A stretch of 64,000 nucleotides of DNA from a virus, in the IMG/VR virus record IMGVR_UViG_3300050192_000013, positions 3,705 to 67,704 of that record; one strand, 5' to 3'. Positions 1-21,798 of this stretch are shown one piece after another. The notes beneath the pieces are model-generated. The model saw nothing but the letters and a program-made list of their open reading frames with translations, was not told the DNA's origin and searched no databases. The position numbers and the translations under genes were made by a program. Position 1 is the first letter of the stretch. Each line of letters starts with the position of its first letter.

Positions 1-336
1 CTTATGCGCGGATAACTTGTGCGCAGGTGACTTTGTGGAGTATCGCATTCGTTTCACTAACGGACGCGTGGAATCAGTGGAGTTAATTCCAGAGAGACAA
101 TGGACATGACCGAAGCACAAATCAAATATGAACACCAGAATCATCACATGGCTGAAGGCGCAGAAATGACTCCATCCCAGCTAGTTCAGGACTATGATTT
201 AATCGCGCACGAAGATTTGCGCATCGGCAATATGAGCCGGTCGGCCAGCGGGACAGTCGAAGCGCCAGGGACAAACGTAAAACAGAAGTCTGGACTGAAT
301 AAGTCCATCATGGATGCCGCGTGGGGCCAATTAATA

Positions 337-603
337 GGGAATTATATACATGACTACAGCGAAAAGGACGCTGCTGAATGCAACCGCATGAAGAGAGGGT
401 AGTTACCGAGCAAAAAGAACTGGGCGACAAACTTGTCAAACTGCGCGAGTTCATCGCCTCGAATCCAATCTTTCAGAAACTTCCCCGCGACGAGCAGGAG
501 CGACTGAAAACACAAGAGTTTCACATGTCCATGTACTGGAGGGTGCTTGGCGACAGGATCGGCGAATTCCCGAAGTAGTCCTGTAGTCAAGTATATAATT
601 CCC
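337..603. mobile_element. Non-autonomous IS1595-type cassette (267 bp) carrying one passenger gene
   Basis: TIRs GGGAATTATATACATGACTAC (337-357) and GTAGTCAAGTATATAATTCCC (583-603). Perfect 8-bp TSD AATTAATA at 329-336 and 604-611. No transposase inside. Confidence 0.9.
378..578 (+). CDS. Small phage protein, crAss001_48-like family (passenger of cassette)
   Basis: MQPHEERVVTEQKELGDKLVKLREFI..IFQKLPRDEQERLKTQ..M..Y..VLGDRI matches my recollection of this family pattern. Confidence 0.7.
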   Translation: MQPHEERVVTEQKELGDKLVKLREFIASNPIFQKLPRDEQERLKTQEFHMSMYWRVLGDRIGEFPK

Positions 604-841
604 AATTAATATGGCAGATCATTTATAAGGCTGAGAGCGCCGGTAAGTGGGTCGTGCCAGTCAATCCACGAGGCACGAGTCAAAAGTGTTCGCAGTGCGG
701 CGAAGTTGTCAAAAAGGAATTGTCGGAGCGCAGGCATAAGTGTGCCTGCGGTAGCGACTTGGACCGAGACCACAACGCCGCGATAAACATCCAAAGGCTC
801 GGGATGAGCCTTGCGGGCCTTGCGCCTTCAGAATGTATGAG

Positions 842-862
842 GTAGTTATGTATATAAATCCC
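842..862. repeat. Orphan IS1595-type right TIR overlapping the tnpB stop codon
   Basis: GTAGTTATGTATATAAATCCC has 2 mismatches to the TIR consensus. Its partner is not in the window. Confidence 0.75.
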
Positions 863-881
863 AAAAAACAAAAGGACAATC

Positions 882-1214
882 GTGATTCAAACACCAAACT
901 TTGATCCGAACAATAGAATTGAGGTCTACCTCGCGGCGATTCTGGAAGAGTTACGCGAACATCGCAAGCAGGCTACGGAGATGATGAAGCGCGCGGAGGA
1001 GATATCCGACAAACCTGTGCGCTTCGTCAAGATGGCGAACAAATGCCGGGTCATGGGTACAGATACCGCGCGTCTGGAATATGTCATGGAACACATGTTC
1101 ATCGTCCGCGACGTTGGGCCGCGCGCCACACGCGTCTATACAACCCGTGAGGATATCGACGAGGCGATGGCTGTGGACGCGCCACGGGCCAGCGGTGCGC
1201 CGGGAAAGGGGTAA
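882..1214 (+). CDS. Hypothetical phage protein
   Basis: 110-aa ORF, GTG start preceded by AAGGAC. Confidence 0.6.
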   Translation: MIQTPNFDPNNRIEVYLAAILEELREHRKQATEMMKRAEEISDKPVRFVKMANKCRVMGTDTARLEYVMEHMFIVRDVGPRATRVYTTREDIDEAMAVDAPRASGAPGKG

Positions 1215-1264
1215 GGTAAAGTTGAGTGGCTATTGAGACGGCCTGTGGATACATTCGTGACCCC

Positions 1265-1328
1265 TTGCACACCGGCGTGCGCGGCGGTAGGATATGGGCT
1301 TGCGCGGGATTTTGACGTATGTTAGGAT
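1265..1328 (+). promoter_or_regulatory. Two tandem sigma70-like promoters
   Basis: TTGCAC-17-TAGGAT (1265-1293) and TTGCGC-17-TAGGAT (1300-1328). Confidence 0.55.
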
Positions 1329-1447
1329 TGAAGGGTAGCAACGGAAACGGAGCCGACTGATCCTCGGTTCTAATACGTCCAGTGCCCGGCCAGGAGCTAC
1401 TTCCATCCCTGGTCGGCTCTGGCACCCGAATGGAAGCGGGGCCAAAA

Positions 1448-1696
1448 ATGACCGATCAAGATGAAGGCACACGCCAAGCCGAAGCATTCAATTTAAGCGA
1501 TACCGAATACGAGTTAGAGTGGCTTGCATCGCTACCCGATATAGAACGCGACGTATCGGCCTACTTCTATCGCATATTTTCTCCTTGCTTTGAGTTGATC
1601 CAGGAAGTGCCAGTAAGGACGGAATGCGGAGATACGCTGCGTGTTGATTACGTCGGCAGAGAACACGCTGGAGACCTAAATGGGGGAATTATATAG
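1448..1696 (+). pseudogene. Probable PD-(D/E)XK nuclease-like gene truncated by the TIR at 1684
   Basis: ..FELIQEVPV....LRVDYVG.. motif. The frame runs into the TIR and stops inside it, with no E-x-K motif. Confidence 0.45.
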
Positions 1697-2519
1697 ATGA
1701 CTACACCAAATCAGCAGAATCAGAGGGATAGCCTGTGAAGCGAATCGTCCAGTTTTCCGGCGGACTTTGTTCGTTCTTCGCGGCAAAGCGCGTGGTTGAG
1801 CAGTTCGGAAAAGACGATGTAACCCTGCTCTTCGCGGACACTCTCATCGAGTCTCCGGGACTGTACCGTTTCCGTGATGCCGCTGCTGCGTTTCTCGGCC
1901 TCCCTGTGACCGTGATTGCGGAGGGGCGTACGCCGTGGCAGGTATTCAAGGACTGGGGCGTGAAAGGGTTTTTGGGGAACTCCCGCGTGGACATCTGCTC
2001 TCAAGTTCTCAAGCGCGAATTTTGCCGGGGATGGGTCGCCGGACACTGCTTTATGGAGCCAGTGGTCCTGTATGTCGGAATTTCTTGGGACGAAGGGCGT
2101 ATAGATGAAATTCGCGCCAACTGGCTACCCTGGGCCGTAGAAGCGCCGATGTGCGACCCTCCGTACCTCACCAAGTGCGACATGATTCGGGAAGCTACCG
2201 CGCTAGGCTTGCCGCTGTCAGAGGCATACGCGGACGGATTCTCTCATGACAACTGTGGGGGCGGATGCGTCAAGGCCGGGCAGGCTCATTTTGCGCAACT
2301 CTACAAGATTCGGCCAGCGGTTTATGCGGAGTGGGAGCGCAACGAAGAGGACGTGCGTAAGCATATTGGCCAAGATGTCTCAATCCTCAAAGACAGGAGA
2401 TGTGGACAGACCAAGCCTTTGACGTTGGCGGCGTTCAAGGCACGGATTGAGACAGGCGATTATGACGTTCACGAATTTGGAGGATGCGGATGTGGCGTGT
2501 AGGCAAGTATATAATTCCC
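1684..2519. mobile_element. IS1595-type TIR-bounded cassette carrying a PAPS-reductase-like gene, no TSD
   Basis: Left TIR GGGAATTATATAGATGACTAC (1684-1704), right TIR GTAGGCAAGTATATAATTCCC (2499-2519). Flanks CTAAATGG and GAAGCAAA differ. Confidence 0.75.
1735..2502 (+). CDS. PAPS reductase-like / adenine nucleotide alpha-hydrolase family phage protein
   Basis: N-terminal PP-loop-like FSGGLCS..LLFADT, HDNCGGGCVKAG motif and C-terminal GGCGC. The TAG stop lies inside the TIR. Confidence 0.75.
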   Translation: MKRIVQFSGGLCSFFAAKRVVEQFGKDDVTLLFADTLIESPGLYRFRDAAAAFLGLPVTVIAEGRTPWQVFKDWGVKGFLGNSRVDICSQVLKREFCRGWVAGHCFMEPVVLYVGISWDEGRIDEIRANWLPWAVEAPMCDPPYLTKCDMIREATALGLPLSEAYADGFSHDNCGGGCVKAGQAHFAQLYKIRPAVYAEWERNEEDVRKHIGQDVSILKDRRCGQTKPLTLAAFKARIETGDYDVHEFGGCGCGV

Positions 2520-2570
2520 GAAGCAAACCGTCCGATATTGCTGGATTCCACTCACTGAGCAAGTTTTATT

Positions 2571-2691
2571 TTGACATTTTGCCGCGCCTGTGTCAAGATA
2601 GCGGTGGGGGCGGCACATGCCGCGTGTCGCCGCGCAAGCCGGAACCACTCTCTGAGCAAGTTTGCCTTCCGCGCCGCCCCCTCCTACCGCT
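2571..2691 (+). promoter_or_regulatory. sigma70-like promoter followed by a long leader hairpin upstream of the replication gene
   Basis: TTGACA-17-CAAGAT with extended TG (2571-2599). AGCGGTGGGGGCGGC (2600-2614) pairs with GCCGCCCCCTCCTACCGCT (2673-2691). Confidence 0.45.
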
Positions 2692-2769
2692 TAAAAATAA
2701 ATTCTCTGATTTCCTTGTAGGAAGCCGTGATTCGCGGTATATTTTATTCAGTCGGGAGATACCTGCTCA

Positions 2770-3525
2770 GTGTCTACGATAGATCCAGATGGACTTTTTG
2801 GTGGCGACCGAATGCGGCGATGTTCCAATCTTGCTCAACTTCACTGGCCTAGATTTTTCCTCGCCTCCGATGGTTTCGGAAGGATCGAAATAAACTACGC
2901 ACGCATCCTCGGGAAGGCTTACGCCACGTTTAACCCGATGCCGGGACAGGATGAACTATTCGGGTACATCAAGGAATACGCAGCGAACTACCTGCTATTC
3001 CCGTACCTCTGTGACGGTCAACAATGGGGACAATGGGATACGCGGCCTGAGTGTTTGCCTGTTTATAAGACGGCGGTAGATAAGCGTAGCCCCGCCCCGG
3101 ATGCGCGGGCATTACAGGAATGGAAGCGGGAGTACATCAAGGAATGTAAAAATCTTCCGCAACTGTTCGGAAAACTTTCTGAAGGCTTTCATGCAATCGC
3201 AGATGGCGTTGAAGAAATGGCGGTCGCGCTCCCGGCTGGTTCTTCGATGGTATCGGCGGAATGGAAACAATCCGACGACCTAATCGCTGAGATGTTCCCG
3301 ACTACGGACGGCGCATTTCGGCGAAAGATTATAGAGGCCGCAATTCAGGCATACATCGGAGCTTCGACAAAGAATACAGCCCCGCTAACCGACGAAATTC
3401 TTGGCCGCGCTATTGTTAAATCGACAGCAGAGAAGCAGACCAGCGCGGCGCTATACCTGACAAGACTCCCTAACTTTATCGGAAATCAAGTCAGGAGTTT
3501 TGAGAAGAACAGGAGAAGGGCGTGA
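2770..3525 (+). CDS. Putative phage replication initiator / replisome organiser
   Basis: The N-terminus (..ASDGFGR..LFGYIKEY..LLFPY..DGQQWG..) resembles winged-helix initiator N-domains, and the genomic position fits. Confidence 0.5.
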   Translation: MSTIDPDGLFGGDRMRRCSNLAQLHWPRFFLASDGFGRIEINYARILGKAYATFNPMPGQDELFGYIKEYAANYLLFPYLCDGQQWGQWDTRPECLPVYKTAVDKRSPAPDARALQEWKREYIKECKNLPQLFGKLSEGFHAIADGVEEMAVALPAGSSMVSAEWKQSDDLIAEMFPTTDGAFRRKIIEAAIQAYIGASTKNTAPLTDEILGRAIVKSTAEKQTSAALYLTRLPNFIGNQVRSFEKNRRRA

Positions 3526-3779
3526 CTCCTTGGCGCGGAATTGAGATAAACGGGGAGTTGCGCAACCTGAATGCGTGCATCCGGCGCATTCTGTCCGAAG
3601 GCCCTGCAACATCCCTAGAAATAGCCGATTCTCTCGGGATTACGCGAAGTCAGATCCGCAAGTCAATCACAACCATGCGGGTGAGTGGGTATGTCCAGCC
3701 AGATTGCGCCGGTTATCGCAAGGACAAGATCTACTCTCTTACACCGCGCGGCTTAGCGATGTTCAGGAGACGACCATGA
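3522..3779 (+). CDS. Winged-helix (MarR/ArsR-like) DNA-binding protein
   Basis: GPATSLEIADSLGITRSQIRKSITTMRVSGYV...YSLTPRG. Confidence 0.7.
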   Translation: MTPWRGIEINGELRNLNACIRRILSEGPATSLEIADSLGITRSQIRKSITTMRVSGYVQPDCAGYRKDKIYSLTPRGLAMFRRRP

Positions 3780-4006
3780 GTAATATCTTCGAGGAGTTCG
3801 GAAGTTCTCGCAAGCTTCCAGAAATAGCTGCCGCTGAAGTGGCACTACTGAATGCAATTGCGGAAACTGACCGCCAGCACGAAGGCCCGCACGCGCCATA
3901 CCTCCGCAGCATCGAGCACGGCGTGTTGAACGGCCTTGCGGTGGAGCGCTGGCGCTGCTCGTGCGGGTGGACTGGGCCATATTTCAAGCGGGGATGGTTG
4001 CGATGA
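3776..4006 (+). CDS. Hypothetical protein
   Basis: ATGA overlap with upstream gene, RBS AGGAGA, C-terminal WRCSCGW motif. Confidence 0.55.
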   Translation: MSNIFEEFGSSRKLPEIAAAEVALLNAIAETDRQHEGPHAPYLRSIEHGVLNGLAVERWRCSCGWTGPYFKRGWLR

Positions 4007-4296
4007 CGGAAATTCAAGAGCAAGACGTGCTAGTGCTGGGCCATCCGGAAGACTGTACCGGATTGCGGCAGTTCCTTGTGGAGCGCGAGATATGCGCGTT
4101 TGGTGGTAACGCAATTAAACGCCCAACGCTTATATGGGTAAGCCAAAACATAACCATAGAGTCATGTGGCCATGCGGGATACGTCATGGACGCCGTTTCG
4201 GTTGAGGATGCTATACGGAACGGTATGAAACCGGAACCGGTTGGACATAGGGGACCAGTTGTCGTGTGCGGTAAAATGGGGCGGTTCATCGAATGA
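4003..4296 (+). CDS. Hypothetical protein
   Basis: ATGA-coupled ORF in the operon. Confidence 0.55.
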   Translation: MTEIQEQDVLVLGHPEDCTGLRQFLVEREICAFGGNAIKRPTLIWVSQNITIESCGHAGYVMDAVSVEDAIRNGMKPEPVGHRGPVVVCGKMGRFIE

Positions 4297-4682
4297 AGGC
4301 GAACGAAGTCCGTTGGAGTTGCGATAAGTGCGGGGCCGAAGGTTGGATACCGGAGCCGCGGTTTGGATGTGAAGCATTAGCGGCAGCGCAGACGCAGCAT
4401 ACAGAGCACGCCAAGTGGATACGGATCGGGGAGCGGAGGCCGGTAGTCAAATGACGGATTGTATGGTGGAGTTTCGGCTTAAAAGTGACGTACCGTTGAT
4501 AGGGGATGGTAAATGACACTGTACGATCTATTCACAAGCCACTTCACATGGCGCGCGCTATTCTCGGCCTTTTGGCCGCCCGTGATTGTCGCGGTGTCTG
4601 CCTTCTATGCTGGTTACTGGCGCGGAAGAGTTGTCGAACAGCGCGAAACCCCGAGGCTGATGGATAAATTAAAGGTGCCGAG

Positions 4683-4970
4683 ATGAGTATCCAACTGACC
4701 GTTACAAAGACGCTAACAAAGACGCTGAAAGGCTTTGATGAAATGAGCGACGAACAGATTATCGATTACTACTGCGATGAACCGGCTGATTTCTTCGATG
4801 ACGCGCAGTGGGATATCAAGCGCGACTCTGGGCGCTGTATCTGTCCGAAGGAATGTGATTGTGAGTATCGTGGCGATGGAAGCGGCTTTCGCGGCAACAG
4901 CAAGTACTGTCCAAAACATAATACATATCCAGATCCATTGCCGGAATGCCTGGCCGAGGTCCACGGATGA
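4683..4970 (+). CDS. Hypothetical Cys-rich protein
   Basis: ATGA-coupled, 95 aa, CxC..CxC..C..H. Confidence 0.55.
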   Translation: MSIQLTVTKTLTKTLKGFDEMSDEQIIDYYCDEPADFFDDAQWDIKRDSGRCICPKECDCEYRGDGSGFRGNSKYCPKHNTYPDPLPECLAEVHG

Positions 4971-5251
4971 AAATACCACAACAGCCACTCGAATGGATCT
5001 CAATGAATTGCGACTGCAAAAGTGCGCGGCATACAATCCGCTTTTGCTTCGACCCAGACGATGGAGACCTGTACGTCGATGTGCAGTTAGCGCGATGGCA
5101 CGGATTCTTTAAGCGTTGCTGGATTGCTATGCGATACATCCTAGGCTTAACGGATCGGTGCGGACATTGGGATTGCGCGCTGCTGAGTGACCACGCCAGC
5201 CTAATTATCGAACTGTGCGAACGGTCGATTAGTGCAAGGGCGGAAAAGTGA
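4967..5251 (+). CDS. Hypothetical phage protein
   Basis: ATGA-coupled. CDC...H.IRF..D.DDGDLY..V.L...GFFKR.W.A.RYI.G is a common phage motif. Confidence 0.6.
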   Translation: MKIPQQPLEWISMNCDCKSARHTIRFCFDPDDGDLYVDVQLARWHGFFKRCWIAMRYILGLTDRCGHWDCALLSDHASLIIELCERSISARAEK

Positions 5252-5622
5252 TTAACGTCGCTGAACAACTAAGCAAGATATACGCGCGCATACCAGCGAT
5301 CAACTGTAAGCGCAAGTGCCAAGAGTGTTGTGGTCCCATTATGATGTCGAAGGCCGAATACGCCCAAGCGTTTGGCAACGCGAGGGCATTCGAGATACTA
5401 GAGCCGTACGTCTGCGCGTTCGACCCTATCGCTGGAAGTTGCCCCAAATTGCTAAGGACTGGAGATTGCGGCGTGTACGAGAACCGCCCCGCGATATGTC
5501 GCCTATGGGGAGTGGTCCGCAAGATGGCGTGTCCGTTCGGATGCGAACCGGAGCGATGGTTGAGCGATAAAGAGGCGCGCGTTATCTTGGGGATGGTGGA
5601 CCGGATTGGAAGCGTGAAATAA
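5248..5622 (+). CDS. YkgJ-family Cys-cluster (Fe-S/Zn) protein
   Basis: CKRKCQECCG ... CP.L...G.CGVYENRPAICRLWG. Confidence 0.8.
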   Translation: MINVAEQLSKIYARIPAINCKRKCQECCGPIMMSKAEYAQAFGNARAFEILEPYVCAFDPIAGSCPKLLRTGDCGVYENRPAICRLWGVVRKMACPFGCEPERWLSDKEARVILGMVDRIGSVK

Positions 5623-6141
5623 ATGGAATATGGCATCCTATTTTCCGCGCCGATGGTCCGTGCGATCCTTGCCGGTAGAAAATCCGTCACCCGCCGCATG
5701 TCAAAGCAATGGCTCAAGCGCAAGTGCGGCGACGTGCTCTGGGTGCGCGAGACCTGGGGAATCATCAATGCATGGCCGGATGACGTACAGTACCAGTACA
5801 TCCGCAATGGCGGCCCATGGCGACCGAACGAGATGGCTTATCGCGCAGATGAACCGCAAGGTGATTATTGTTGGCGATCTTCACTCCACATGCCGCGATG
5901 GGCGAGCCGGATTACATTAGAGGTGACCGAAGATGCGCGGGAAGAACAGTTGCAAGACATCACCGAGGAAGAGGCAATGCGTGAAGGTTTCTATCAAGCG
6001 GTGCATGAGTCGGAGCATGGCGTAGGGCAGGACGTAATCGGATGGTTTGCGGGCATGTGGAGATCGTTGCATGACAAGCCGGGCGAATGCTGGGATGACA
6101 ACCCCACTGTGGTCCGCATTCCGGTTCGGAGGATTATATGA
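5623..6141 (+). CDS. ASCH/PUA-like phage protein
   Basis: ILFSAPMVRAILAGRKSVTRR..GDVLWVRETW..W.SSLHMPRWASRITLEVT..R.E.LQDITEEEA..EG. Confidence 0.75.
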   Translation: MEYGILFSAPMVRAILAGRKSVTRRMSKQWLKRKCGDVLWVRETWGIINAWPDDVQYQYIRNGGPWRPNEMAYRADEPQGDYCWRSSLHMPRWASRITLEVTEDAREEQLQDITEEEAMREGFYQAVHESEHGVGQDVIGWFAGMWRSLHDKPGECWDDNPTVVRIPVRRII

Positions 6142-6629
6142 ACAGCCGTCGATTAGAAGTGCTCCGCAGCTTGGCGCAACTAACACGCGAATCCGCGGAG
6201 GCTGAATATCGGCGCGTGCCAACGTTGCGCAACCGTTGCATGGTGGTTGCCTATGCGTTCTGGATAATCGCAGCCGAGCACAAAGTTCAAGCCGTGATAA
6301 CTGGCGGTGAGTATCTAAAGAATCCATTCGACGGTAAACTCCAATTTGGAGACACGGAGAGCATCAAACAGAAGTCGTATCGGCCAATCCACGCGCATCA
6401 CTGCTGGAATGTTTGCGACGGCCTAATCTTGGATCTTACACGAACGCAATTCGGAAAGTTTCCCTCGGTCGAAATCCTACCAGTCACGGACACGCACTAC
6501 CTGCCGGATAAAGTTGACTGGGACGGCGCAACCGCATGGTCCACATTGGAACTTATGGGGCAGTACGCGCAACGCGAGGCTGAGAATATTATAAATCGAG
6601 TGCTGAAGGAAAGGACGAAGGTGGCTTGA
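6138..6629 (+). CDS. Hypothetical protein
   Basis: 163-aa ATGA-coupled ORF. C..H.W..D motifs are reminiscent of a papain-like/transglutaminase fold (weak). Confidence 0.55.
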   Translation: MNSRRLEVLRSLAQLTRESAEAEYRRVPTLRNRCMVVAYAFWIIAAEHKVQAVITGGEYLKNPFDGKLQFGDTESIKQKSYRPIHAHHCWNVCDGLILDLTRTQFGKFPSVEILPVTDTHYLPDKVDWDGATAWSTLELMGQYAQREAENIINRVLKERTKVA

Positions 6630-6630
6630 C

Positions 6631-7635
6631 GTGGGACAAACAACAGGTATCGCCTGGACGGATAGTACGTGGTCGCCCCTCCGCGCGCGCATCCGGCCAG
6701 ACGCGCTAGAAATTGCGGAGCAAAAAGGTTACACGTCGCTCGTGCAAGTTCTGACAGCGCGCAAGCCGAATGGGGATTTAAGGAGTCCTGCCGGTAAGGT
6801 GGGGCCTCACTGCGAGCACGTTTCGCCGGGGTGTGAAAACTGCTACAGCGAGTTTAATGGCAAGCGCTGTCTTCCCGCGAACGGAACCGGCCTACCGTTC
6901 GACCGGCGCTCGCGTGACCTCGTGGAAATCTTCCTTGACGAAAAGATTCTCATGCAGCCGTTACATTGGAGGCGACCGCGTAGAATTTTCGTGAATTCTC
7001 AAACCGATACGTGGCTGGAATCCGTTCCATACGAACTGATAGATAGAATGTTCGGTGTTGCCGCGTTATGCCCGCAGCATAGTTTCCAATTCCTAACTAA
7101 GCGCGCAGCGAGGATGTTTCTATACATGACGGCGCTTCGCCAGGAGGGATGGACGCAAGGATACATCGCCGAACAATACGGACGGCCGGGACGTTTTTTC
7201 CCGACGGAACACGCACTGCCGCTGAATCAATCAGAAAGGATGCGATGGCCGTTGCAGAATGTCTGGCTTGGCATAAGCGCAGAAGACCAACAGCGATGGG
7301 ATGAACGGTCCAAGTGGTTACGGAAGACACCAGCAGCGGTGCGGTTTGTTTCGTATGAACCGGCTCTCGGACCCATTGATTTCGGCGACCTATCCGGCAT
7401 TCATCAAATAATTACAGGAGGAGAAAGTGGACGCGGAGCGCGGCCATCACAACTAGCATGGTATCGTTCAACAATTACCCAGTGCCGGGCTGCGAGCATT
7501 GCGTGTTTTGTGAAGCAGTTTGGCAAGCGCCCGCTCGCTAGATGTCTCCAGTACGCCTGTGAATCCGACCCAGGCCACGGCGCTAACCCGATGGATTGGC
7601 CTAGGGAATATCGCATACAGGAGTTTCCGGCGTGA
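6631..7635 (+). CDS. DUF5131 (phage Gp37/Gp68) family protein
   Basis: TGIAWTDSTW.P...C.HVSPGCENCY...FVNS.TD...FQFLTKR...NVWLGISAEDQ...RFVSYEPALGP...ITGGESG. Confidence 0.85.
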   Translation: MGQTTGIAWTDSTWSPLRARIRPDALEIAEQKGYTSLVQVLTARKPNGDLRSPAGKVGPHCEHVSPGCENCYSEFNGKRCLPANGTGLPFDRRSRDLVEIFLDEKILMQPLHWRRPRRIFVNSQTDTWLESVPYELIDRMFGVAALCPQHSFQFLTKRAARMFLYMTALRQEGWTQGYIAEQYGRPGRFFPTEHALPLNQSERMRWPLQNVWLGISAEDQQRWDERSKWLRKTPAAVRFVSYEPALGPIDFGDLSGIHQIITGGESGRGARPSQLAWYRSTITQCRAASIACFVKQFGKRPLARCLQYACESDPGHGANPMDWPREYRIQEFPA

Positions 7636-8327
7636 TTCCAGAACCACCCACACCAGACTTCGCCGTCGCACCCGTCCGCGTCCTCGTCCAGGACGGCAAG
7701 CCGCTGGTACCCGGCGCGGAGCAGTTGATAGCCGCCAAACAGACCAATCAGCCATTCCCAAACCTCTCACAGCAACGCAAAGGCTTTATCGCTAACTTTC
7801 CGAGCACAACAATAGCGCAGCGGAAGCGAGCGCGGAAGCTCATGCGCCCAGCAGAAAAGCATGACGACCTTGCGCGTCAAGCACTTAGCATAGTCGAAGG
7901 TGGTCAGATCGTGCTCGTGAAACCGGAGGAAGTGTCGGTCGAAGCGTTTCAATCGCGCATCCTTACTTCGCTAAGTCATAGAAAAGATACACGTTCTTGG
8001 AAATTCTCCATGAAATCGCTCGGATGTAACCGCGTGGCGCTGGTTTGCAAGGGGAAATCGGCCAGGAATGGCGCACAAGGCGTTGGGGTATCCGATACTA
8101 CCTCCAGCACCCATCCGATAGCGCCTGAAGCCACCTACGCGCGGGAATCCAGCATTCCTGCGAAGCTCGGCAAGCGCCTGCGCGACCCGAAACCGGATGT
8201 GATTCGCCGTGGGTTGGAAAATCGACGGCAGAAGGCTACGCGGAAGGTGGCGGAACTGGAGATGCGGCTGGAGGCTGAACGCGGGAAGTTGGCGGGGATT
8301 GCGGATTCACTGGGACGGTTAGCGTGA
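7632..8327 (+). CDS. Hypothetical protein
   Basis: 231-aa GTGA-coupled ORF with C-terminal coiled coil. Confidence 0.5.
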   Translation: MIPEPPTPDFAVAPVRVLVQDGKPLVPGAEQLIAAKQTNQPFPNLSQQRKGFIANFPSTTIAQRKRARKLMRPAEKHDDLARQALSIVEGGQIVLVKPEEVSVEAFQSRILTSLSHRKDTRSWKFSMKSLGCNRVALVCKGKSARNGAQGVGVSDTTSSTHPIAPEATYARESSIPAKLGKRLRDPKPDVIRRGLENRRQKATRKVAELEMRLEAERGKLAGIADSLGRLA

Positions 8328-9946
8328 ATTACATTTCCCTATTCAGCGGGATCGACGCCGCATCGGTCGCTTGGATTCCGTTGGGATGGAAGCCACTTCT
8401 GTTCGCGGAGATTGAAAAGTTTCCGTGCGACGTCCTTAAACATCACTATCCAGACGTGCCGAACTTGGGTGATGTAACCGCAGAAGATTTTATTGAACGA
8501 GCGAAAAAGGAACTGAATGGAACAATTGTTGATGTTCTCATCTTCGGAAGCCCGTGCCAAGGATTTTCCGTCGCGGGAAAGCGCCTTGGATTGGATGACC
8601 CGCGCAGCAATCTCGCATTGCACGCCCTTAGAATTTGCCGCGCGCTTGCTCCAACCTGGATCTTATTCGAGAACGTCCCTGGCTTGTTTTCCAGTTGGTC
8701 CGGTGCTCCGCAAAGTCCATCAAGAATGGACGCTGGATTTGCAGACGGGGGAACCGTTGTGCGTGAGTTCATTGAGTCAAGTGACTTCGCCGAGTTCCTT
8801 CGATGGGTTTCGGACATCGGGTATTCTGGCGCATGGACAGTGCTTGACGCTCAATACCGCGACTTGGCGCAACGGCGGGAGCGCGTGTTCTTTGTCGGAT
8901 GTGTTGGAGACTGGGCCGGTCCAGCCGCAGTATTACTTGAGTCGGAGAGCTTGTCTGGGAATATTGCGCCGAGCAGAGAAGCGCGGCAAGGAACTGCCGA
9001 AGGCGCTAATGAATGCGCTAATGCAAGTAGTGAATGGGGGGATGTCGGAAGCCTCTGTGCCAGAGATAGCAAGACAGTCGGAAATCAATTCGTCAACGAA
9101 GGTAAAGTGTTCGCTGCCCCCGAACGATCCATGTGCCTCAACGGGGGGGGTAATAACAGAATAGACGCGGAGTCCGAAACGTTCATCTGCGAAGTCGCGC
9201 CAACTATTGATGCTAGTTATGGACGCCTACAGGGGCAAGACGATCAGCATATCAACAGCGGCGCTGGATTGTTTGTTGCGTTTCAAAATACGGGGCAGGG
9301 ATGGTTCAATGAATCAGATACCGCAGGGACAATCCGTGATTTAAGCGCCGGTGGTGATTCACAGCACTCCAATATTGTAGCCTTTCGTGCCAGCGGACAG
9401 AATGGATTTATCCCCGATGCAATTGCGCCGCCCGATACTACGCAAGTGACCAGCAAAGCGAATCGCAGTAACCCAAAGCAAGGCGACCCGTGTCACACCC
9501 TGGCGAAGGGAGCGGAACCGCCTACAATCGCAATAGGGTTCTACGCCAACGATAGCGGTAACGACGCAGGCCGCGACGTAAGCCCTACGTTACGGTCTAT
9601 GGAACACGGAGGCGGTAATGAACCAGCGGTAGCCTTTCAGTCAAGCCAGAGCGGAATGCGGGAAGTTGAAACTCACGCTACACTTGATGCCAATAACGGA
9701 AGCCGCCGTCACAACGGAGTCGCGCAGGGTATGGCGGTACGAAGGCTTACCCCAAAAGAGTGCGCTAGATTGCAGGGGTTTGGTGATAAATATCTGGATA
9801 TCAAGTATCGCGGGAAACCAGCGGCAGATGGCGTGAAGTATAGGGCTCTCGGTAACTCTATGGCCGTTCCGGTCATCCGCTACATCGGGGAACGGATACA
9901 GATCGTTCATGAATTAAAGAAAGCGGCGTTGGAGCGGCTAGGCTAA
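8324..9946 (+). CDS. DNA (cytosine-5)-methyltransferase with long modular variable region
   Basis: Motif I SLFSGID, IV GSPCQGFS, VI ENVPG, VIII QRRERVF, IX RRLTP.EC.RLQGF, X YRALGNSMAVPV. Confidence 0.95.
   Translation: MNYISLFSGIDAASVAWIPLGWKPLLFAEIEKFPCDVLKHHYPDVPNLGDVTAEDFIERAKKELNGTIVDVLIFGSPCQGFSVAGKRLGLDDPRSNLALHALRICRALAPTWILFENVPGLFSSWSGAPQSPSRMDAGFADGGTVVREFIESSDFAEFLRWVSDIGYSGAWTVLDAQYRDLAQRRERVFFVGCVGDWAGPAAVLLESESLSGNIAPSREARQGTAEGANECANASSEWGDVGSLCARDSKTVGNQFVNEGKVFAAPERSMCLNGGGNNRIDAESETFICEVAPTIDASYGRLQGQDDQHINSGAGLFVAFQNTGQGWFNESDTAGTIRDLSAGGDSQHSNIVAFRASGQNGFIPDAIAPPDTTQVTSKANRSNPKQGDPCHTLAKGAEPPTIAIGFYANDSGNDAGRDVSPTLRSMEHGGGNEPAVAFQSSQSGMREVETHATLDANNGSRRHNGVAQGMAVRRLTPKECARLQGFGDKYLDIKYRGKPAADGVKYRALGNSMAVPVIRYIGERIQIVHELKKAALERLG
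8517..9164 (+). CDS. Overprinted alternative-frame ORF inside the C5-MTase (M.EcoHK31I beta-polypeptide-like)
   Basis: 215-aa +1-frame ORF: QLLMFSSSE.A...SRTS...CLTLN...CSLSDVLETG.V...YYLS..AC.GILRRAEKRGKELP.AL..AL. Confidence 0.6.
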   Translation: MEQLLMFSSSEARAKDFPSRESALDWMTRAAISHCTPLEFAARLLQPGSYSRTSLACFPVGPVLRKVHQEWTLDLQTGEPLCVSSLSQVTSPSSFDGFRTSGILAHGQCLTLNTATWRNGGSACSLSDVLETGPVQPQYYLSRRACLGILRRAEKRGKELPKALMNALMQVVNGGMSEASVPEIARQSEINSSTKVKCSLPPNDPCASTGGVITE

Positions 9947-10345
9947 CCCATCTTTCCGCAGCCGCACCAGATGCCTGAACCACTCCAACTTGAGCGCCTC
10001 CCACTCCGCGCGATTATCCTTACGCCAGCGCTCTGCCGCTACCCTTCTGTCGGCATGAAGCGACGTGGTGCTTCGATGCCCGTACTGACCCACGCATCCT
10101 TGGTCGATATCCGCATCGCAATCGGGACACGGTACAACCGCGCAGGTGACTTCGCCATACTGCCGAGAAATCAACGGCTGGTACCGTAGTACGATATCCG
10201 CGATTTGGTAGGCAGTTAGGGAAGATTCAGCGTCCGTTGGCGGAGGCGGCTCTTTCTTCTGACGGCCCCATGGCTTCTTCTCGGCGCAAGTGTGGTCTTC
10301 GGTCCACGGTTGAAGGCAGGTGGAACAGATGGGATGCGGGGTCAC
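9938..10345 (-). CDS. Hypothetical Zn-finger protein
   Basis: CSTC..H.C and CPDC...GC...LH..R motifs; convergent with the MTase. Confidence 0.55.
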   Translation of the reverse strand: MTPHPICSTCLQPWTEDHTCAEKKPWGRQKKEPPPPTDAESSLTAYQIADIVLRYQPLISRQYGEVTCAVVPCPDCDADIDQGCVGQYGHRSTTSLHADRRVAAERWRKDNRAEWEALKLEWFRHLVRLRKDGLA

Positions 10346-10578
10346 CGAACTAAACCGTGAGTGTGGCAGTCCAGATTCAGCCCCGGCTTTCGCTTCCGCT
10401 GCGTGGTAATCTTCCGGCGCAACGTGCGAATGCGCTTAGCACGTTCCCTACTCCAATCCTGATGCTCCGCATCGTACGAATCATTATCGTACGAATCGCT
10501 TATATTGCGGTATTCCGCAGCCGCAAGGCAGCGCATCAGTAGACCAACTTCACGGTCGGACAGGGCAAGTGTGGTCAT
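10342..10578 (-). CDS. Hypothetical protein
   Basis: Coupled ORF in the leftward operon. Confidence 0.5.
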   Translation of the reverse strand: MTTLALSDREVGLLMRCLAAAEYRNISDSYDNDSYDAEHQDWSRERAKRIRTLRRKITTQRKRKPGLNLDCHTHGLVR

Positions 10579-10766
10579 GGCTTCCCCGCCGAATCGTAGA
10601 ACCGTACCGCGCTCGGCAGCGAGTTGAAGGTCTTGACGGCCCCGGCGATGGTAACGTGGAAAGTGATATCGAACAAATTAAACTGATCCACCGACAGGAC
10701 GGCCTTCAATTCCTTGCGGCCGGATTCGTTAGAAGAGTACGCCAGTTCGATTTCATGCGCGCGCAT
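10575..10766 (-). CDS. Hypothetical protein (MRAHEIEL..)
   Basis: ATGA-coupled to the downstream gene. Confidence 0.5.
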   Translation of the reverse strand: MRAHEIELAYSSNESGRKELKAVLSVDQFNLFDITFHVTIAGAVKTFNSLPSAVRFYDSAGKP

Positions 10767-10808
10767 CAGCGTGCCGGTTATCTGGGGATGCGGGTGACCG
10801 GGGGCCAT

Positions 10809-11030
10809 TTACAAATCCCTCCATCCCCGCTGCATGCGCAGCGCTTCTGGTTGGTCTACCGTTACCGCCGTTCCGTCGATAACCTTTCCCCAACCCTCGA
10901 TTCCGGTCTCGCAATTGCGACCAAGTGGAACCCATCCGTTGTCCAATAGGAATTGCCTGTTGGGATCTGACGTGGCCGCGAATTCAAGCGCTGACATCAT
11001 CGCAGCCAGTACCGATAGTCTTTCGTTCAT
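10809..11030 (-). CDS. Hypothetical protein (MNERLSVL..)
   Basis: The start overlaps the restored stop of the IS-interrupted gene. Confidence 0.55.
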   Translation of the reverse strand: MNERLSVLAAMMSALEFAATSDPNRQFLLDNGWVPLGRNCETGIEGWGKVIDGTAVTVDQPEALRMQRGWRDL

Positions 11031-11118
11031 GGTTTCTGCGCCTCCCCGAAAAGAAAGGGAATTACATACATGACTACCCCTAGCTTTTGGCCGCATCGCG
11101 TTTCTTCTTTCGTATCCG

Positions 11119-11676
11119 TCCATGCAACCCGCGTTTAAGAACTGCCCAGACGGACTCGATTCCATTCGTGTGCGCCGCACCGCGTTTGTACTCGCCCGCC
11201 GAATGGTTCACGGCGTCATGCCGGAAGAAAAGGCCGTCCAGGTCGGAGTAAGCCATGTGCTCATCGGTGTACAGTTGCGAACCGACTTCCACATTGGCGT
11301 GGATCTCACCTTGAATGGTCTGGATGGTCCGATCCTCGATAACCTTCGCTACGGTGCGCCCGCCGCGTTCTCGCAAGCCCATGACGGCGACCTTGCCGAC
11401 TGGCCCGCGTCCCATGCGGAGCTTCTTGGATTCGTGCTTGTTCGCTTCCTTGCCACCCACAAAGCACTCGTCGATTTCGACCGTGCCGCGAAGCTTGTCA
11501 ATCTCATCGTCGGAGCCGCAAGCTTCACGGAGCCGGGACAGCATGAACCATGCCGACTTCTGGGTTACACCAATCTCCTTGGCAAGTTGAAGGCTGCTGA
11601 TTCCCTTACGAGCGGTCACCAGCAGATACATGGCGTAAACCCACTTGTGAAGCGGGATATGCGACCGCTCGAAGAC
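11119..11676 (-). pseudogene. IS1595 (ISXO2-like) DDE transposase core fragment
   Basis: VFERSHIPLHKW..KGISSLQLAKEIGVTQKSAWFM..VEIDE..TDE..VNHS..HTNGIESVWAVLKRG. The Zn ribbon and C-terminus are missing. Confidence 0.9.
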
Positions 11677-11746
11677 GCTTTCGACTTCGGTTTCGGACGG
11701 TAGTTCAGCACCAAGTCCGCTATCTGATCCAGTTCGACCGGGGCCT

Positions 11747-11998
11747 TCATGCGGCCTCCTTGCGGTCCACTCGGGTGTGATGCGGATAAATAAGGCTCCA
11801 TTGCCAGCAACCCGAACCGCGCCCGCCAAGACTGCGCTTGACCCATTGCGGTCTTCGCATGGCACAGCAACCAGGGCACGCCTCAGGCTTGATAGGGGCG
11901 TTACATTCGTATTCCATTATCTCCTGTCGCGTGAAGTTAGCGAAGTCCATCTCTATGATTTTGTGCCCGCTGTAATAACACCTTCGTTGCCCGCCCAT
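11747..11998 (-). CDS. Cys-rich passenger ORF inside IS1595
   Basis: Follows the transposase C-terminal piece with RBS AAGGAGG; coupled to the small IS ORF. Confidence 0.45.
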   Translation of the reverse strand: MGGQRRCYYSGHKIIEMDFANFTRQEIMEYECNAPIKPEACPGCCAMRRPQWVKRSLGGRGSGCWQWSLIYPHHTRVDRKEAA

Positions 11999-12139
11999 TT
12001 ACGCAACCTCCTTGCCGATGAGCCGTTTGTACGTGAGCCGCTTGCCGACAGATGCGGCCACGAAGCTATTAAGCCGCGCTGTGGTGTGGTTGCGGACGTT
12101 ACCTTCGTTCAGTCGGAAGGTGAACTCATCGACGTAGCG
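11999..12139 (-). pseudogene. IS1595 transposase C-terminal fragment
   Basis: RYVDEFTFRLNEGN....RL...V...VGKRLTYKRLI; located upstream of the core fragment. Confidence 0.85.
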
Positions 12140-12393
12140 CGGCGCGGAAACGGGCGAAAAAGGCTGCGCGAAAGGCGAAGGGCTAACGCTATGACTTATC
12201 AGCCTAAAGGTAGTCATGTATATAATTCCCAAAAGAAACAGTGCCCGGTCTTGCATTGGCTTAACCTGATGCGTGCTCCATCCTCCAAATTGGGATTGGT
12301 TCGCCCATCGTATCAACTGATTCGCCTCATCATTTAGCAGCCATTCCAAGTGCGCGATGCGTAGCTTAGCCTGCTTCAACTCTTCCTCTGTAG

Positions 12394-12696
12394 TCATAAT
12401 TCCCGAACCTCTTTGACTGAAAATATTGGAGCAACGTACTCCGACCGGCCAACTTCCGCGCCACGCCGCATCGTATCCATCGAATATTGCCATTCACGAC
12501 CACAAGACAAGCACGTTACGCGACATGGACCAATCGGCTTCCCGTGGCGCGTTGGAGTAAAGGGGAACGTGAGCCTTCGATGGCGACAGGGGAATAGTAT
12601 AGCTAAGAGCCAGTTCATTGCAATCCTTTCTTGAGATTCCGATACTGACATAACAGGCACAGCCGGCGCAACGAAATACCCTTCCATTTCCCGCAC
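12394..12696 (-). CDS. Hypothetical Zn-binding protein
   Basis: LF.CRH...FP.T.......VTCLSCG; start uncertain. Confidence 0.5.
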   Translation of the reverse strand: MREMEGYFVAPAVPVMSVSESQERIAMNWLLAILFPCRHRRLTFPFTPTRHGKPIGPCRVTCLSCGREWQYSMDTMRRGAEVGRSEYVAPIFSVKEVREL

Positions 12697-12948
12697 TTAC
12701 AGCAATGCAGATGAGTGATGGCCTGCAACTTGATGGCGAAGATGCGCCACGCAAGTAACCAACGGCGAGAGCGTTCGGTCACTGCTTCACCTCGAACTTG
12801 GCGATGATAGCGCGCGCCATATCGCGGTCTGCTCGAAGTGCCTCTATCTCATCGAGGCATTCCGTTATGCAGATTTCGTCCTGCGATTTCGGAGCGCCGG
12901 GGTAACGGGCTTTCCAAATCAGCAATCGATCGTCGGTCATGCGCGCCA

Positions 12949-13296
12949 TCAGTGGGCCTCTTCGATTTTAGCGATTAACATCAGACCCGCAGTGACTCCA
13001 CAACTACACTCGTATTCTGCACCCAAAGCATGTGAGCAGGTGTCATGGTGGCCTTTTTGTAGGCAAGCTACCAGCGCCGCCAGGATTGTGGTGCGTTCGG
13101 CGTTGGACTTTTCCGCCCGCGCTCGCTCTGTGGCTACATCTTCGCTCCAAGACAAGAGCAGCCGATTATCTACCAGTTCGGCGTTCCGTAATTCGCCGGA
13201 AAGCGCCAGTATTTCAGTGGTGCATTCCTTAACTACCGAATCAGGTAGCGCGATTTGGTCTAACTTCTGCGCTCGTTCTAGTGTCATTCGTGGCAT
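12949..13296 (-). CDS. Hypothetical protein
   Basis: RBS GGAGG; coiled coil plus H..C...CSCG. Confidence 0.5.
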   Translation of the reverse strand: MPRMTLERAQKLDQIALPDSVVKECTTEILALSGELRNAELVDNRLLLSWSEDVATERARAEKSNAERTTILAALVACLQKGHHDTCSHALGAEYECSCGVTAGLMLIAKIEEAH

Positions 13297-20496: not shown

Positions 20497-21798
20497 ATGG
20501 CACTTGAAATCGAAATGTGGCCCACGGACAAACCTGTGGATTATGCGCGTAACGCCCGCAAGATCACAGAGAAGGCTGTCGATAAAGTTGCCGCGTCAAT
20601 CAAGGAATTCGGATTTCGTCAACCCGTGGTCGTGGATAAAGAAGGCGTTATCTGCATCGGGCATGTGCGCCGGCGTTCCGCGAAAAAGTTAGGGCTGGCA
20701 GAGATACCAGTTCACATCGCCTCAGATCTGACTCCTGGTCAGATTAAAGCCTTGAGAATTATGGACAATAGGAGCAGCGACGAAGTGCAGTTCGACTTCG
20801 AGCTACTTGGTCCCGAACTACTCGACTTGAAGCTACTCAACATCGACCTCGCGCTAACGGGATTTGATATGCCGGAGTTGGACCGCATCCTAAACGTGGG
20901 CGGCGCGACCGAGGGCGAGGACGATGTACCCGAGCCGCCCGTTAACCCGGTAACGCGGTTAGGTGACATGTGGCTGCTGGATAGCGCGGCTAAGGGCGCT
21001 AGCGGCGAAACGCTCCAGCATCGCGTGTTGTGCGGCGACAGCACGAAGGCGGAAGATGTCAGCGTGCTGTTGGGCGGCGTGCCTGCGCCGTTCCTGATGT
21101 GCATCGACCAACCATACGGTGATTCGTACGATCCTGAGTGGCGTCTAGACGCTGGCTTGAATAAGCCGTGGCAAACGCGTGCTGAAGGTAAAGTAAAGAA
21201 CGACGACCGTGTGGATTGGTCCGCTGCTTACGCGCTATTCCCTGGCGACGTTATCTACGCGTGGCATGCGGGCATCCACGCAGGGGAAGTGGCCGTTGGC
21301 CTTCATTCGCAAGGGTTTCACATCCGCGCGCAAATCATCTGGGCAAAGCCCAGTTTAGTTATCGGGCGTGGCCATTACCACTGGCAGCATGAGCCTTGCT
21401 GGATGGCTGTCCGTAAAGGAAAAACTACCCATTGGTCGGGCGACCGCAAGCAGTCGACTCTCTGGCAAGTCGAGAATATGCATCGGACGCAAGGCAATGT
21501 GGATGACGGGAAAACGTCACACGCAACTCAAAAACCCGTAGAGTTGTACAGGCGTCCAATCCTAAACCATACCAAAGCGGGCGACGCAGTCGAAGATTGC
21601 TTTCTCGGATCAGGTACGTGCCTCGTGGCTTGCGAGTTGACGGAACGCGTCTGCTACGGATGCGAGATCGAACCAAACTACGTTGATATGGCGGTGATTA
21701 GGTGGCAGAATTTAACGAAGCGCACCGCCGTGTTGCACGGGGATGGGCGTACTTTCGCTGAGGTGGAATGCGAGAGGGCGCAAAAGGCTGCCGCGTGA
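20497..21798 (+). CDS. ParB/Srx N-terminal domain fused to N6-adenine/N4-cytosine DNA methyltransferase
   Basis: YARNARK..V..VA.SI.EFGF.QPVVVD..GH.R; HRVLCGDST; variant DQPY; H.TQKPVEL; DCFLGSGT. Confidence 0.88.
   Translation: MALEIEMWPTDKPVDYARNARKITEKAVDKVAASIKEFGFRQPVVVDKEGVICIGHVRRRSAKKLGLAEIPVHIASDLTPGQIKALRIMDNRSSDEVQFDFELLGPELLDLKLLNIDLALTGFDMPELDRILNVGGATEGEDDVPEPPVNPVTRLGDMWLLDSAAKGASGETLQHRVLCGDSTKAEDVSVLLGGVPAPFLMCIDQPYGDSYDPEWRLDAGLNKPWQTRAEGKVKNDDRVDWSAAYALFPGDVIYAWHAGIHAGEVAVGLHSQGFHIRAQIIWAKPSLVIGRGHYHWQHEPCWMAVRKGKTTHWSGDRKQSTLWQVENMHRTQGNVDDGKTSHATQKPVELYRRPILNHTKAGDAVEDCFLGSGTCLVACELTERVCYGCEIEPNYVDMAVIRWQNLTKRTAVLHGDGRTFAEVECERAQKAAA

Follow-up and report, generated by a model that had tools for sequence, protein, structure and literature searches.

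The stretch of DNA analysed here, referred to below as the window, comprises 64,000 nucleotides (bases 3705-67704) of the 68,528-bp IMG/VR virus record IMGVR_UViG_3300050192_000013. The record originates from a peat metagenome, has an estimated completeness of 59% and represents a tailed phage, as it encodes a large terminase, a portal protein, a tape measure protein and several DNA methyltransferases. Between positions 337 and 12230, the window contains seven copies of a 21-nt end sequence, which form three bounded elements, named here E1, E2 and E3, and one solo end. E1 and E2 each enclose one gene, E3 encloses the remnant of a transposase of the IS1595 family of insertion sequences (IS), and the solo end closes a truncated tnpB gene. 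The features are listed in window coordinates (ORF, open reading frame):

130-845, plus strand: tnpB, 5'-truncated, C-terminal third only, split by E1 (Pfam Cas12f1-like_TNB, E 2e-21)
329-336: left 8-bp target duplication of E1, AATTAATA, identical to 604-611
337-603: E1 (267 bp), inside the tnpB remnant, carrying a crAss001_48 gene
337-357, plus strand: left terminal inverted repeat of E1, consensus copy with 0 mismatches
378-578, plus strand: cargo of E1, a 66-amino-acid crAss001_48-family gene (PF21825, E 8e-17; phrog_774)
583-603, minus strand: right terminal inverted repeat of E1, 1 mismatch
604-611: right 8-bp target duplication of E1, AATTAATA, identical to 329-336
842-862, minus strand: solo end, read here as the right end of a truncated tnpB cassette, 2 mismatches, holding the tnpB stop codon TAG (843-845)
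1684-2519: E2 (836 bp), holding one gene
1684-1704, plus strand: left end of E2, truncating the upstream ORF 1382-1696
1735-2502, plus strand: cargo of E2, 255 amino acids, PAPS-reductase-like (phrog_424, PAPS reductase, E 4.5e-38)
2499-2519, minus strand: right end of E2, containing the cargo stop codon TAG (2500-2502)
11049-11056: left 8-bp target duplication of E3, AAAAGAAA, exact
11057-12230: E3 (1174 bp), scrambled IS1595 transposase remnant
11057-11077, plus strand: end of E3, 1 mismatch
11119-11679, minus strand: IS1595 transposase core, residues 68-254 of the 307-amino-acid L058 transposase (tblastn, 84% identity; PF12762, E 9e-33; NF033547)
12020-12157, minus strand: C-terminal tail of the transposase, residues 260-305 (tblastn), displaced upstream of the core
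12210-12230, minus strand: other end of E3, consensus copy with 0 mismatches
12231-12238: right 8-bp target duplication of E3, AAAAGAAA, exact

A motif search recovered exactly seven matches to the end in the window with 0-2 mismatches (337, 1684 and 11057 on the plus strand; 583, 842, 2499 and 12210 on the minus strand). The chance expectation is 0, as the motif is absent from all 100 dinucleotide shuffles of the window, and no additional copy was found in the whole 68.5-kb record, even when 5 mismatches were allowed. The consensus derived from 128 ends is GGGAATTATATACWTGACTACC, with a repeat length of 21-22 nt. It includes TATAAT, TTGAC-like and ATG/TAG motifs, and its inner part supplies an ATG on one side and a TAG on the other, the inner 9 nt being CATGACTAC / GTAGTCATG. 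All seven window copies start with GGG, and terminal inverted repeats beginning with GG are a mark of the IS1595 family. The closest members of the family are probably those of the ISNwi1 group, for which the ISfinder tables list the end motif 'ggnnatTAT'; GGGAATTAT fits this motif. The other marks of the family are a DDE_Tnp_IS1595 catalytic domain, an N-terminal Zn_Tnp_IS1595 zinc ribbon and an 8-bp target duplication (PMC8101967).

A preliminary description of this DNA had already placed seven near-identical ends at these positions, two pairs of them with perfect 8-bp target duplications, and had noted passenger stop codons in or beside the repeats and no intact transposase in the window. 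All of this holds: the duplications of E1 and E3 are exact, the tnpB and E2 stop codons lie inside ends, the E1 stop codon (576-578) lies 4 nt before its end, and the transposase is represented by the two E3 fragments alone. The same description had the repeats bracket accessory genes, namely a crAss001_48-like gene, a PAPS-reductase-like gene and a tnpB remnant. This applies to E1 and E2. However, the pair at 11057/12210 encloses the transposase remnant and not tnpB, and the tnpB remnant, which is indeed present, has only one end and is itself split by E1.

The mobility of these units was checked by comparing contigs of four public runs with window positions 1-13000; the runs include X2, another peat sample, X3, a permafrost sample, and X5. 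A 680-nt contig of X2 matches 109-326 with 0 mismatches and 602-1063 with 1 mismatch and skips exactly 275 nt, which corresponds to the 267 nt of E1 plus the 8 nt of one duplicate, and is thus an exact E1-free site. A contig of X3 contains the identical joint, so that the exact empty site is present in a second sample. In silico, the removal of E1 together with one duplicate restores the tnpB reading frame. With an exact duplication and an exact empty site in two other samples, E1 has moved as a whole unit. Its cargo gene has its own Shine-Dalgarno sequence about 10 nt upstream. Further run contigs match from position 337 on or from 1684 on and have different flanks, which suggests that E1-like and E2-like cassettes sit at other sites. 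One X3 contig differs from the window in the flank to the left of E2. In a contig of X5, a joint from 359 to 581 leaves the E1 ends only 9 nt apart, a minimal form resembling a miniature inverted-repeat transposable element (MITE).

In E2, the GTG start codon of the cargo overlaps the stop codon of a 13-codon leader ORF whose start is the ATG of the left end. The cargo has no Pfam match at E<=0.01, and a single-protein scan of viral contigs returned no relatives of it, either end-less or cassette-borne. The upstream ORF 1382-1696 (104 amino acids, no Pfam or PHROG match) ends in the left end of E2 and does not resume beyond the element; the position of E2 is therefore probably a junction left by deletion or recombination. 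E3 can be described as an IS copy with a scrambled interior and a dead transposase: its order is permuted relative to L058 (blastn) and the zinc ribbon (residues 1-67) is gone. This permuted interior between perfect ends shows that interiors can be rebuilt while ends persist, which would fit aberrant repair synthesis.

A search with a degenerate end showed how widely the family is distributed. It detected the ends at 84 loci in IMG/VR. Contigs of bacterial and archaeal genomes contained 99 loci, nearly all of them in metagenome-assembled genomes (MAGs) of many phyla, with Acidobacteriota, Chloroflexota, Latescibacterota, Spirochaetota, Thermodesulfobacteriota and Paracoccaceae among the groups represented. 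Plus/minus end pairs at <=4 mismatches were collected from all loci and the window, giving 83 non-redundant pairs of 46-5564 bp. Perfect 8-bp duplications flank 53 of the 83 pairs and have an A+T content of 81%, compared with 43% in the surrounding DNA; the duplication size of the IS1595 family is found at these pairs and at E1 and E3, though not at E2. A full IS1595 transposase of 304-334 amino acids, 44-75% identical to that of L058, is enclosed by 19 of the 83 pairs. These full transposases, among them those of L058, L072 and L127, lie between the same ends and carry the Zn_ribbon_IS1595 and DDE_Tnp_IS1595 (NF033547) domains, so that the full copies have the domain composition of the family (L058: PF12762, 3e-44; PF12760, 2e-9; NF033547, 8.5e-59). 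In MAGs, the transposase of the full copies is often followed by 1-4 passenger genes, such as N6/N4 and EcoRI-type methylases, in elements of up to 5.5 kb. By contrast, about 57 of the 83 pairs are free of any trace of a transposase. The 48 viral pairs comprise 35 transposase-free cassettes of 200-1450 bp, 2 mini-elements, 5 full copies and 6 partial transposase copies (tblastn), and the transposase-free form thus outnumbers the full form in phage contigs by about 7 to 1 (37 versus 5).

The smallest elements consist of two ends 4-9 nt apart (46-55 bp); an example is L038 (1669-1714), which has two ends only and a perfect 8-bp duplication, and MITE-like units among the pairs range from 46 to 191 bp. 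Cognate transposases are encoded by other phage contigs as well as by MAGs of peat Acidobacteriota, for example L127. An identical 308-bp cassette with the same duplication is present on opposite strands in L022 (3889-4196, IMG/VR) and L167 (2504-2811, a Candidatus Sulfotelmatobacter MAG), a hint that these peat phages infect Acidobacteriota or reside in them as prophages. Among the cultured phages in INPHARED, none carries this transposase lineage (best match 38% identical), and IMG/VR contained no close relative of the phage itself when the neighbouring 540-amino-acid methyltransferase was used as the query (best match 48% identical).

The cassettes share a compact architecture: an end, 0-35 nt, one ORF, 0-10 nt and the far end. 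A single ORF spans at least 70% of the element in 44 of the 51 elements of 200-1450 bp. In 15 of these 44 cassettes the ORF starts at the ATG of the end (positions 14-16), and in 16 its stop codon is the TAG at the inner margin of the far end; the majority of the others stop no more than about 10 nt away from that end. The ATG in the end appears to serve as the start codon in some cassettes, such as L047, whose product begins with MTTIRELE at this ATG and whose homologue L028, with its own start codon 18 nt further in, begins with MPTLRELE. No strict rule was found for which end variant lies left or right of the cargo; only the GATG variant is biased, towards the 5' side of the cargo (10 versus 1). 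In all 8 clear cases the cargo is co-oriented with both flanks; otherwise, crude ORF-based calls of orientation and of genes disrupted at the insertion sites were too noisy in these GC-rich genomes. The cargo matched includes crAss001_48, Dam, N6/N4, C5 and EcoRI-type methylases, PAPS reductases, ASCH, DUF3307, DUF1643 and full-length TnpB; zinc-ribbon mini-proteins and many proteins without a family complete the list. E1 and E2 enclose genes unrelated to transposition, and neither they nor the 35 viral relatives contain a trace of a transposase, as is typical of mobile insertion cassettes. DNA-modification genes are plentiful both within and beyond cassettes; in this phage, two large DNA methyltransferases, one of them fused to a ParB-like domain, lie outside any cassette at window positions 8324-9946 and 20497-21798.

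TnpB deserves separate consideration. The solo end at 842-862 has no upstream partner in the whole record, even at 5 mismatches, and the upstream ORFs are unrelated to tnpB. Its end variant (…CATAACTAC) and the position of the stop codon inside the end are common to the tnpB cassettes L031 and L091, and the variant also closes L216. Because of this shared variant and arrangement, we read the solo end as the right end of an end-tnpB-end cassette whose left part was deleted. TnpB genes occupy the full-length cassettes L031 (1178 bp, duplication ATATTTTT) and L091 as well as L040, and cassettes of MAGs contain more distantly related TnpBs. In IMG/VR the L091 TnpB has 12 close relatives, representing about six distinct elements, and every one of them is bounded by these ends. 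TnpB recurs as the sole cargo of IS1595-type cassettes (window 612-862; L031, L216-L227), with a stop codon that is either located in the end or at most about 45 nt away from it, too close for a classical IS605 right end to fit in between. RNAalifold, applied to 7 cassettes, identified two hairpins with compensatory changes directly before the end, within the final 60 nt of tnpB, although coding constraints confound this signal. No omega-RNA family was detected in the tnpB cassettes with Rfam 15 at the gathering threshold, where only a tRNA matched. When L225 (2070-2130) is compared with L224 (2640-2675), an extra 22-bp solo end flanked by the 8-bp duplication AATCTATA is seen within another cassette and resembles the footprint left behind when a cassette is lost via deletion between GGGA microhomologies.

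The origin of the cargo can be addressed with crAss001_48. The E1 cargo has 18 relatives in metagenome contigs, 17 of which have no ends nearby; the closest full-length end-less relatives are 79, 77 and 72% identical. DNA homology between E1 and the end-less genes extends only from about 20 nt upstream of the ATG, including the Shine-Dalgarno sequence, to the stop codon. The other cassette-borne crAss001_48 gene, L205, is 44-47% identical to the E1 cargo and has end-less kin of its own at 75% and 66% identity. The two cassette-borne genes were united in 0 of 200 bootstrap trees, and each falls into a different end-less subgroup. As both are nested within end-less homologues from phages, the simplest reading is that an ordinary phage gene was captured twice, independently. 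The native stop region of L205 was exchanged, so that its ORF now terminates at the TAG supplied by the end; native junctions in its relatives (stop codon, 2-4 nt, next ATG) resemble the inner end GTAGTCATG, a hint, and no more, that microhomology may be involved in capture. Capture looks rare and residence in cassettes long, because the cassette-borne members of several cargo families are deeply diverged from one another and in some cases share their junctions.

Taken together, we consider it very likely that the ends are the terminal inverted repeats of one IS1595-family lineage of DDE insertion sequences, that E1 and E2 are one-gene mobile insertion cassettes of this family, that a third cassette, with tnpB, is truncated, and that E3 is a dead IS copy. 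The cassettes are probably mobilised in trans. An IS1595 transposase made elsewhere in the infected cell, from the host chromosome, a prophage or a co-infecting phage, would bind the ends and insert the cassette into an AT-rich 8-bp target, which would be duplicated. New cargo would be taken now and then from ordinary phage genes at ORF boundaries, and captured cassettes would persist and diversify as units. For the capture itself we favour, with low confidence, aberrant gap repair or template switching followed by streamlining. The preliminary description had proposed a gene-capture and shuttling system, to be checked by searching the consensus across contigs, by looking for empty-site alleles and by finding an intact cognate transposase. 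Neither of the two outcomes that it had named as refuting was observed, namely transposase remnants in every pair elsewhere, or a lack of empty sites or of alternative passengers. The proposal is supported by 35 of 48 viral pairs being transposase-free cassettes with many different genes, by the empty site of E1 in contigs of two other samples, by intact transposases between the same ends in other phage contigs and MAGs, and by the nesting of the crAss001_48 genes. Several points, however, weigh against this explanation. The 68.5-kb record (59% complete) contains no intact transposase, and the source in trans is therefore presumptive. E2 is flanked by CTAAATGG and GAAGCAAA, which form no target duplication, and most tnpB cassettes likewise have none, so that a clean transposition signature is missing there. 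Contigs of the four runs contained no empty-site joints for E2 or E3. The direction of change in crAss001_48, capture or loss, rests on parsimony, and deeply diverged cargo families are nevertheless cassette-borne, some with shared junctions, as in L066/L084.

The last of these points bears on the idea that phage genes are never captured and that the cassettes persist as long-lived 'professional' hitchhikers, the end-less homologues being domesticated former cassette genes. L066/L084, L028/L047, L069/L087 and TnpB are all deeply diverged and cassette-borne, some with identical start-in-end junctions, and the 12 end-bounded relatives of the L091 TnpB agree with this view as well. However, it would require many independent and traceless losses of ends, considering that 17 of 18 crAss001_48 relatives have no end and that the two cassette-borne members belong to different end-less subgroups; we regard it as improbable, albeit the least improbable of the alternatives.

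Simple decay, in which the pairs are internal deletion products of full IS copies and the ORFs are debris or chance frames, describes E3 exactly, and the six viral pairs with partial transposases and the MITE-like units of 46-191 bp could also arise in this way. For the remainder it is largely refuted and very improbable: the cargo of E1 and E2 matches curated families unrelated to transposition, the 35 viral cassettes have no tblastn trace of a transposase, and cargo proteins match Pfam or PHROG families and recur as diverged homologues. Just as little credence can be given to the repeats being regulatory or recombination motifs of phages, such as promoter-like TATAAT boxes or PeSL-like T4-type signals, spread by homologous recombination. 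The TATAAT, TTGAC-like and ATG/TAG motifs, the consistent orientation of cargo and flanks and the missing duplications at E2 and most tnpB cassettes would suit such motifs, but the exact 8-bp duplications at 53 of 83 pairs, the E1-free site that lacks precisely the element plus 8 bp, the autonomous copies encoding an IS1595 transposase between the same ends and the presence of these ends in MAGs of many phyla would not. Mobile insertion cassettes of the IS1595 family therefore remain the preferred explanation.

Related systems are known. Mobile insertion cassettes, MITEs, solo inverted repeats and transporter IS have been defined (PMC3129680), and the IS1595 family includes 'transporter IS' that carry passengers (Siguier, Gagnevin & Chandler 2009, as cited in PMC3129680 and PMC8101967). 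With these, the present elements share the 8-bp duplications, the ends starting with GG, the transposase domains in full copies and, in MAGs, passengers beside the transposase; however, the dominant form in phage contigs lacks the transposase and has exactly one ORF, and the window holds only derivatives. IS231-MIC231 of Bacillus cereus is a mobile insertion cassette (De Palmenaer et al. 2004, cited in PMC3129680) that likewise has IS ends around passenger genes, no transposase and presumed mobilisation by a cognate IS. It differs in belonging to another IS family, whereas the units described here are phage-resident, one-ORF and codon-tight, with ends that supply start and stop codons. The ultra-small mobile elements MPME1 and MPME2 of mycobacteriophages (~440 bp) are also small inverted-repeat elements with one small ORF that are present or absent among near-identical phages (PMC3029335). 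Unlike the cassettes, they have one fixed sequence and an unexplained 6-bp addition at one end instead of a duplication, are not tied to any known transposase and do not vary in their cargo (PMC3029335). A functional analogy, and only that, exists with integron cassettes, which are compact, mostly promoter-less single-ORF units exchanged among genomes, but which are moved by a tyrosine recombinase at attC/attI within one array, in contrast to the DDE-type ends, 8-bp duplications and scattered AT-rich sites found here. Mobile insertion cassettes and transporter IS are thus already known, while the phage-dominated, one-ORF, codon-tight form and the TnpB cargo are undescribed as far as literature searches reach.

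Beyond transposase binding, the ends might have a further role, which we put forward as a speculative set of linked proposals that are, jointly, rather unlikely to hold. The inner 9 nt could act as a portable start/stop adaptor that expresses a captured ORF wherever it lands in a phage operon. The cassettes could in that case be the phage-specialised equivalent of integron cassettes, built on a DDE transposon. Native stop-start junctions (TAAGTCATG, TAGCCATG) are similar to the inner end, which could direct capture to ORF boundaries. As the conserved 3' hairpins of the TnpB sub-lineage abut the end, transcription of its guide RNA could start in the end or in the adjoining flank. In eukaryotes, Fanzor is tied to DDE transposons; if true, the proposal on the guide RNA would establish such a tie between an RNA-guided nuclease and a DDE transposon for prokaryotes, too. 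The cassettes in any case give natural cases of TnpB carried by a DDE transposon.

The mosaicism of phage genomes is usually credited to recombination. The cassettes described here represent a sequence-defined vehicle that would shift single accessory genes from phage to phage and between phages and bacteria of many phyla. The carried genes are often DNA-modification genes, probably with an anti-restriction role, and include many proteins without an annotated function that are likely under selection in the conflict between phage and host. The conserved 21-nt end provides a simple search handle for cataloguing this cargo in viromes.

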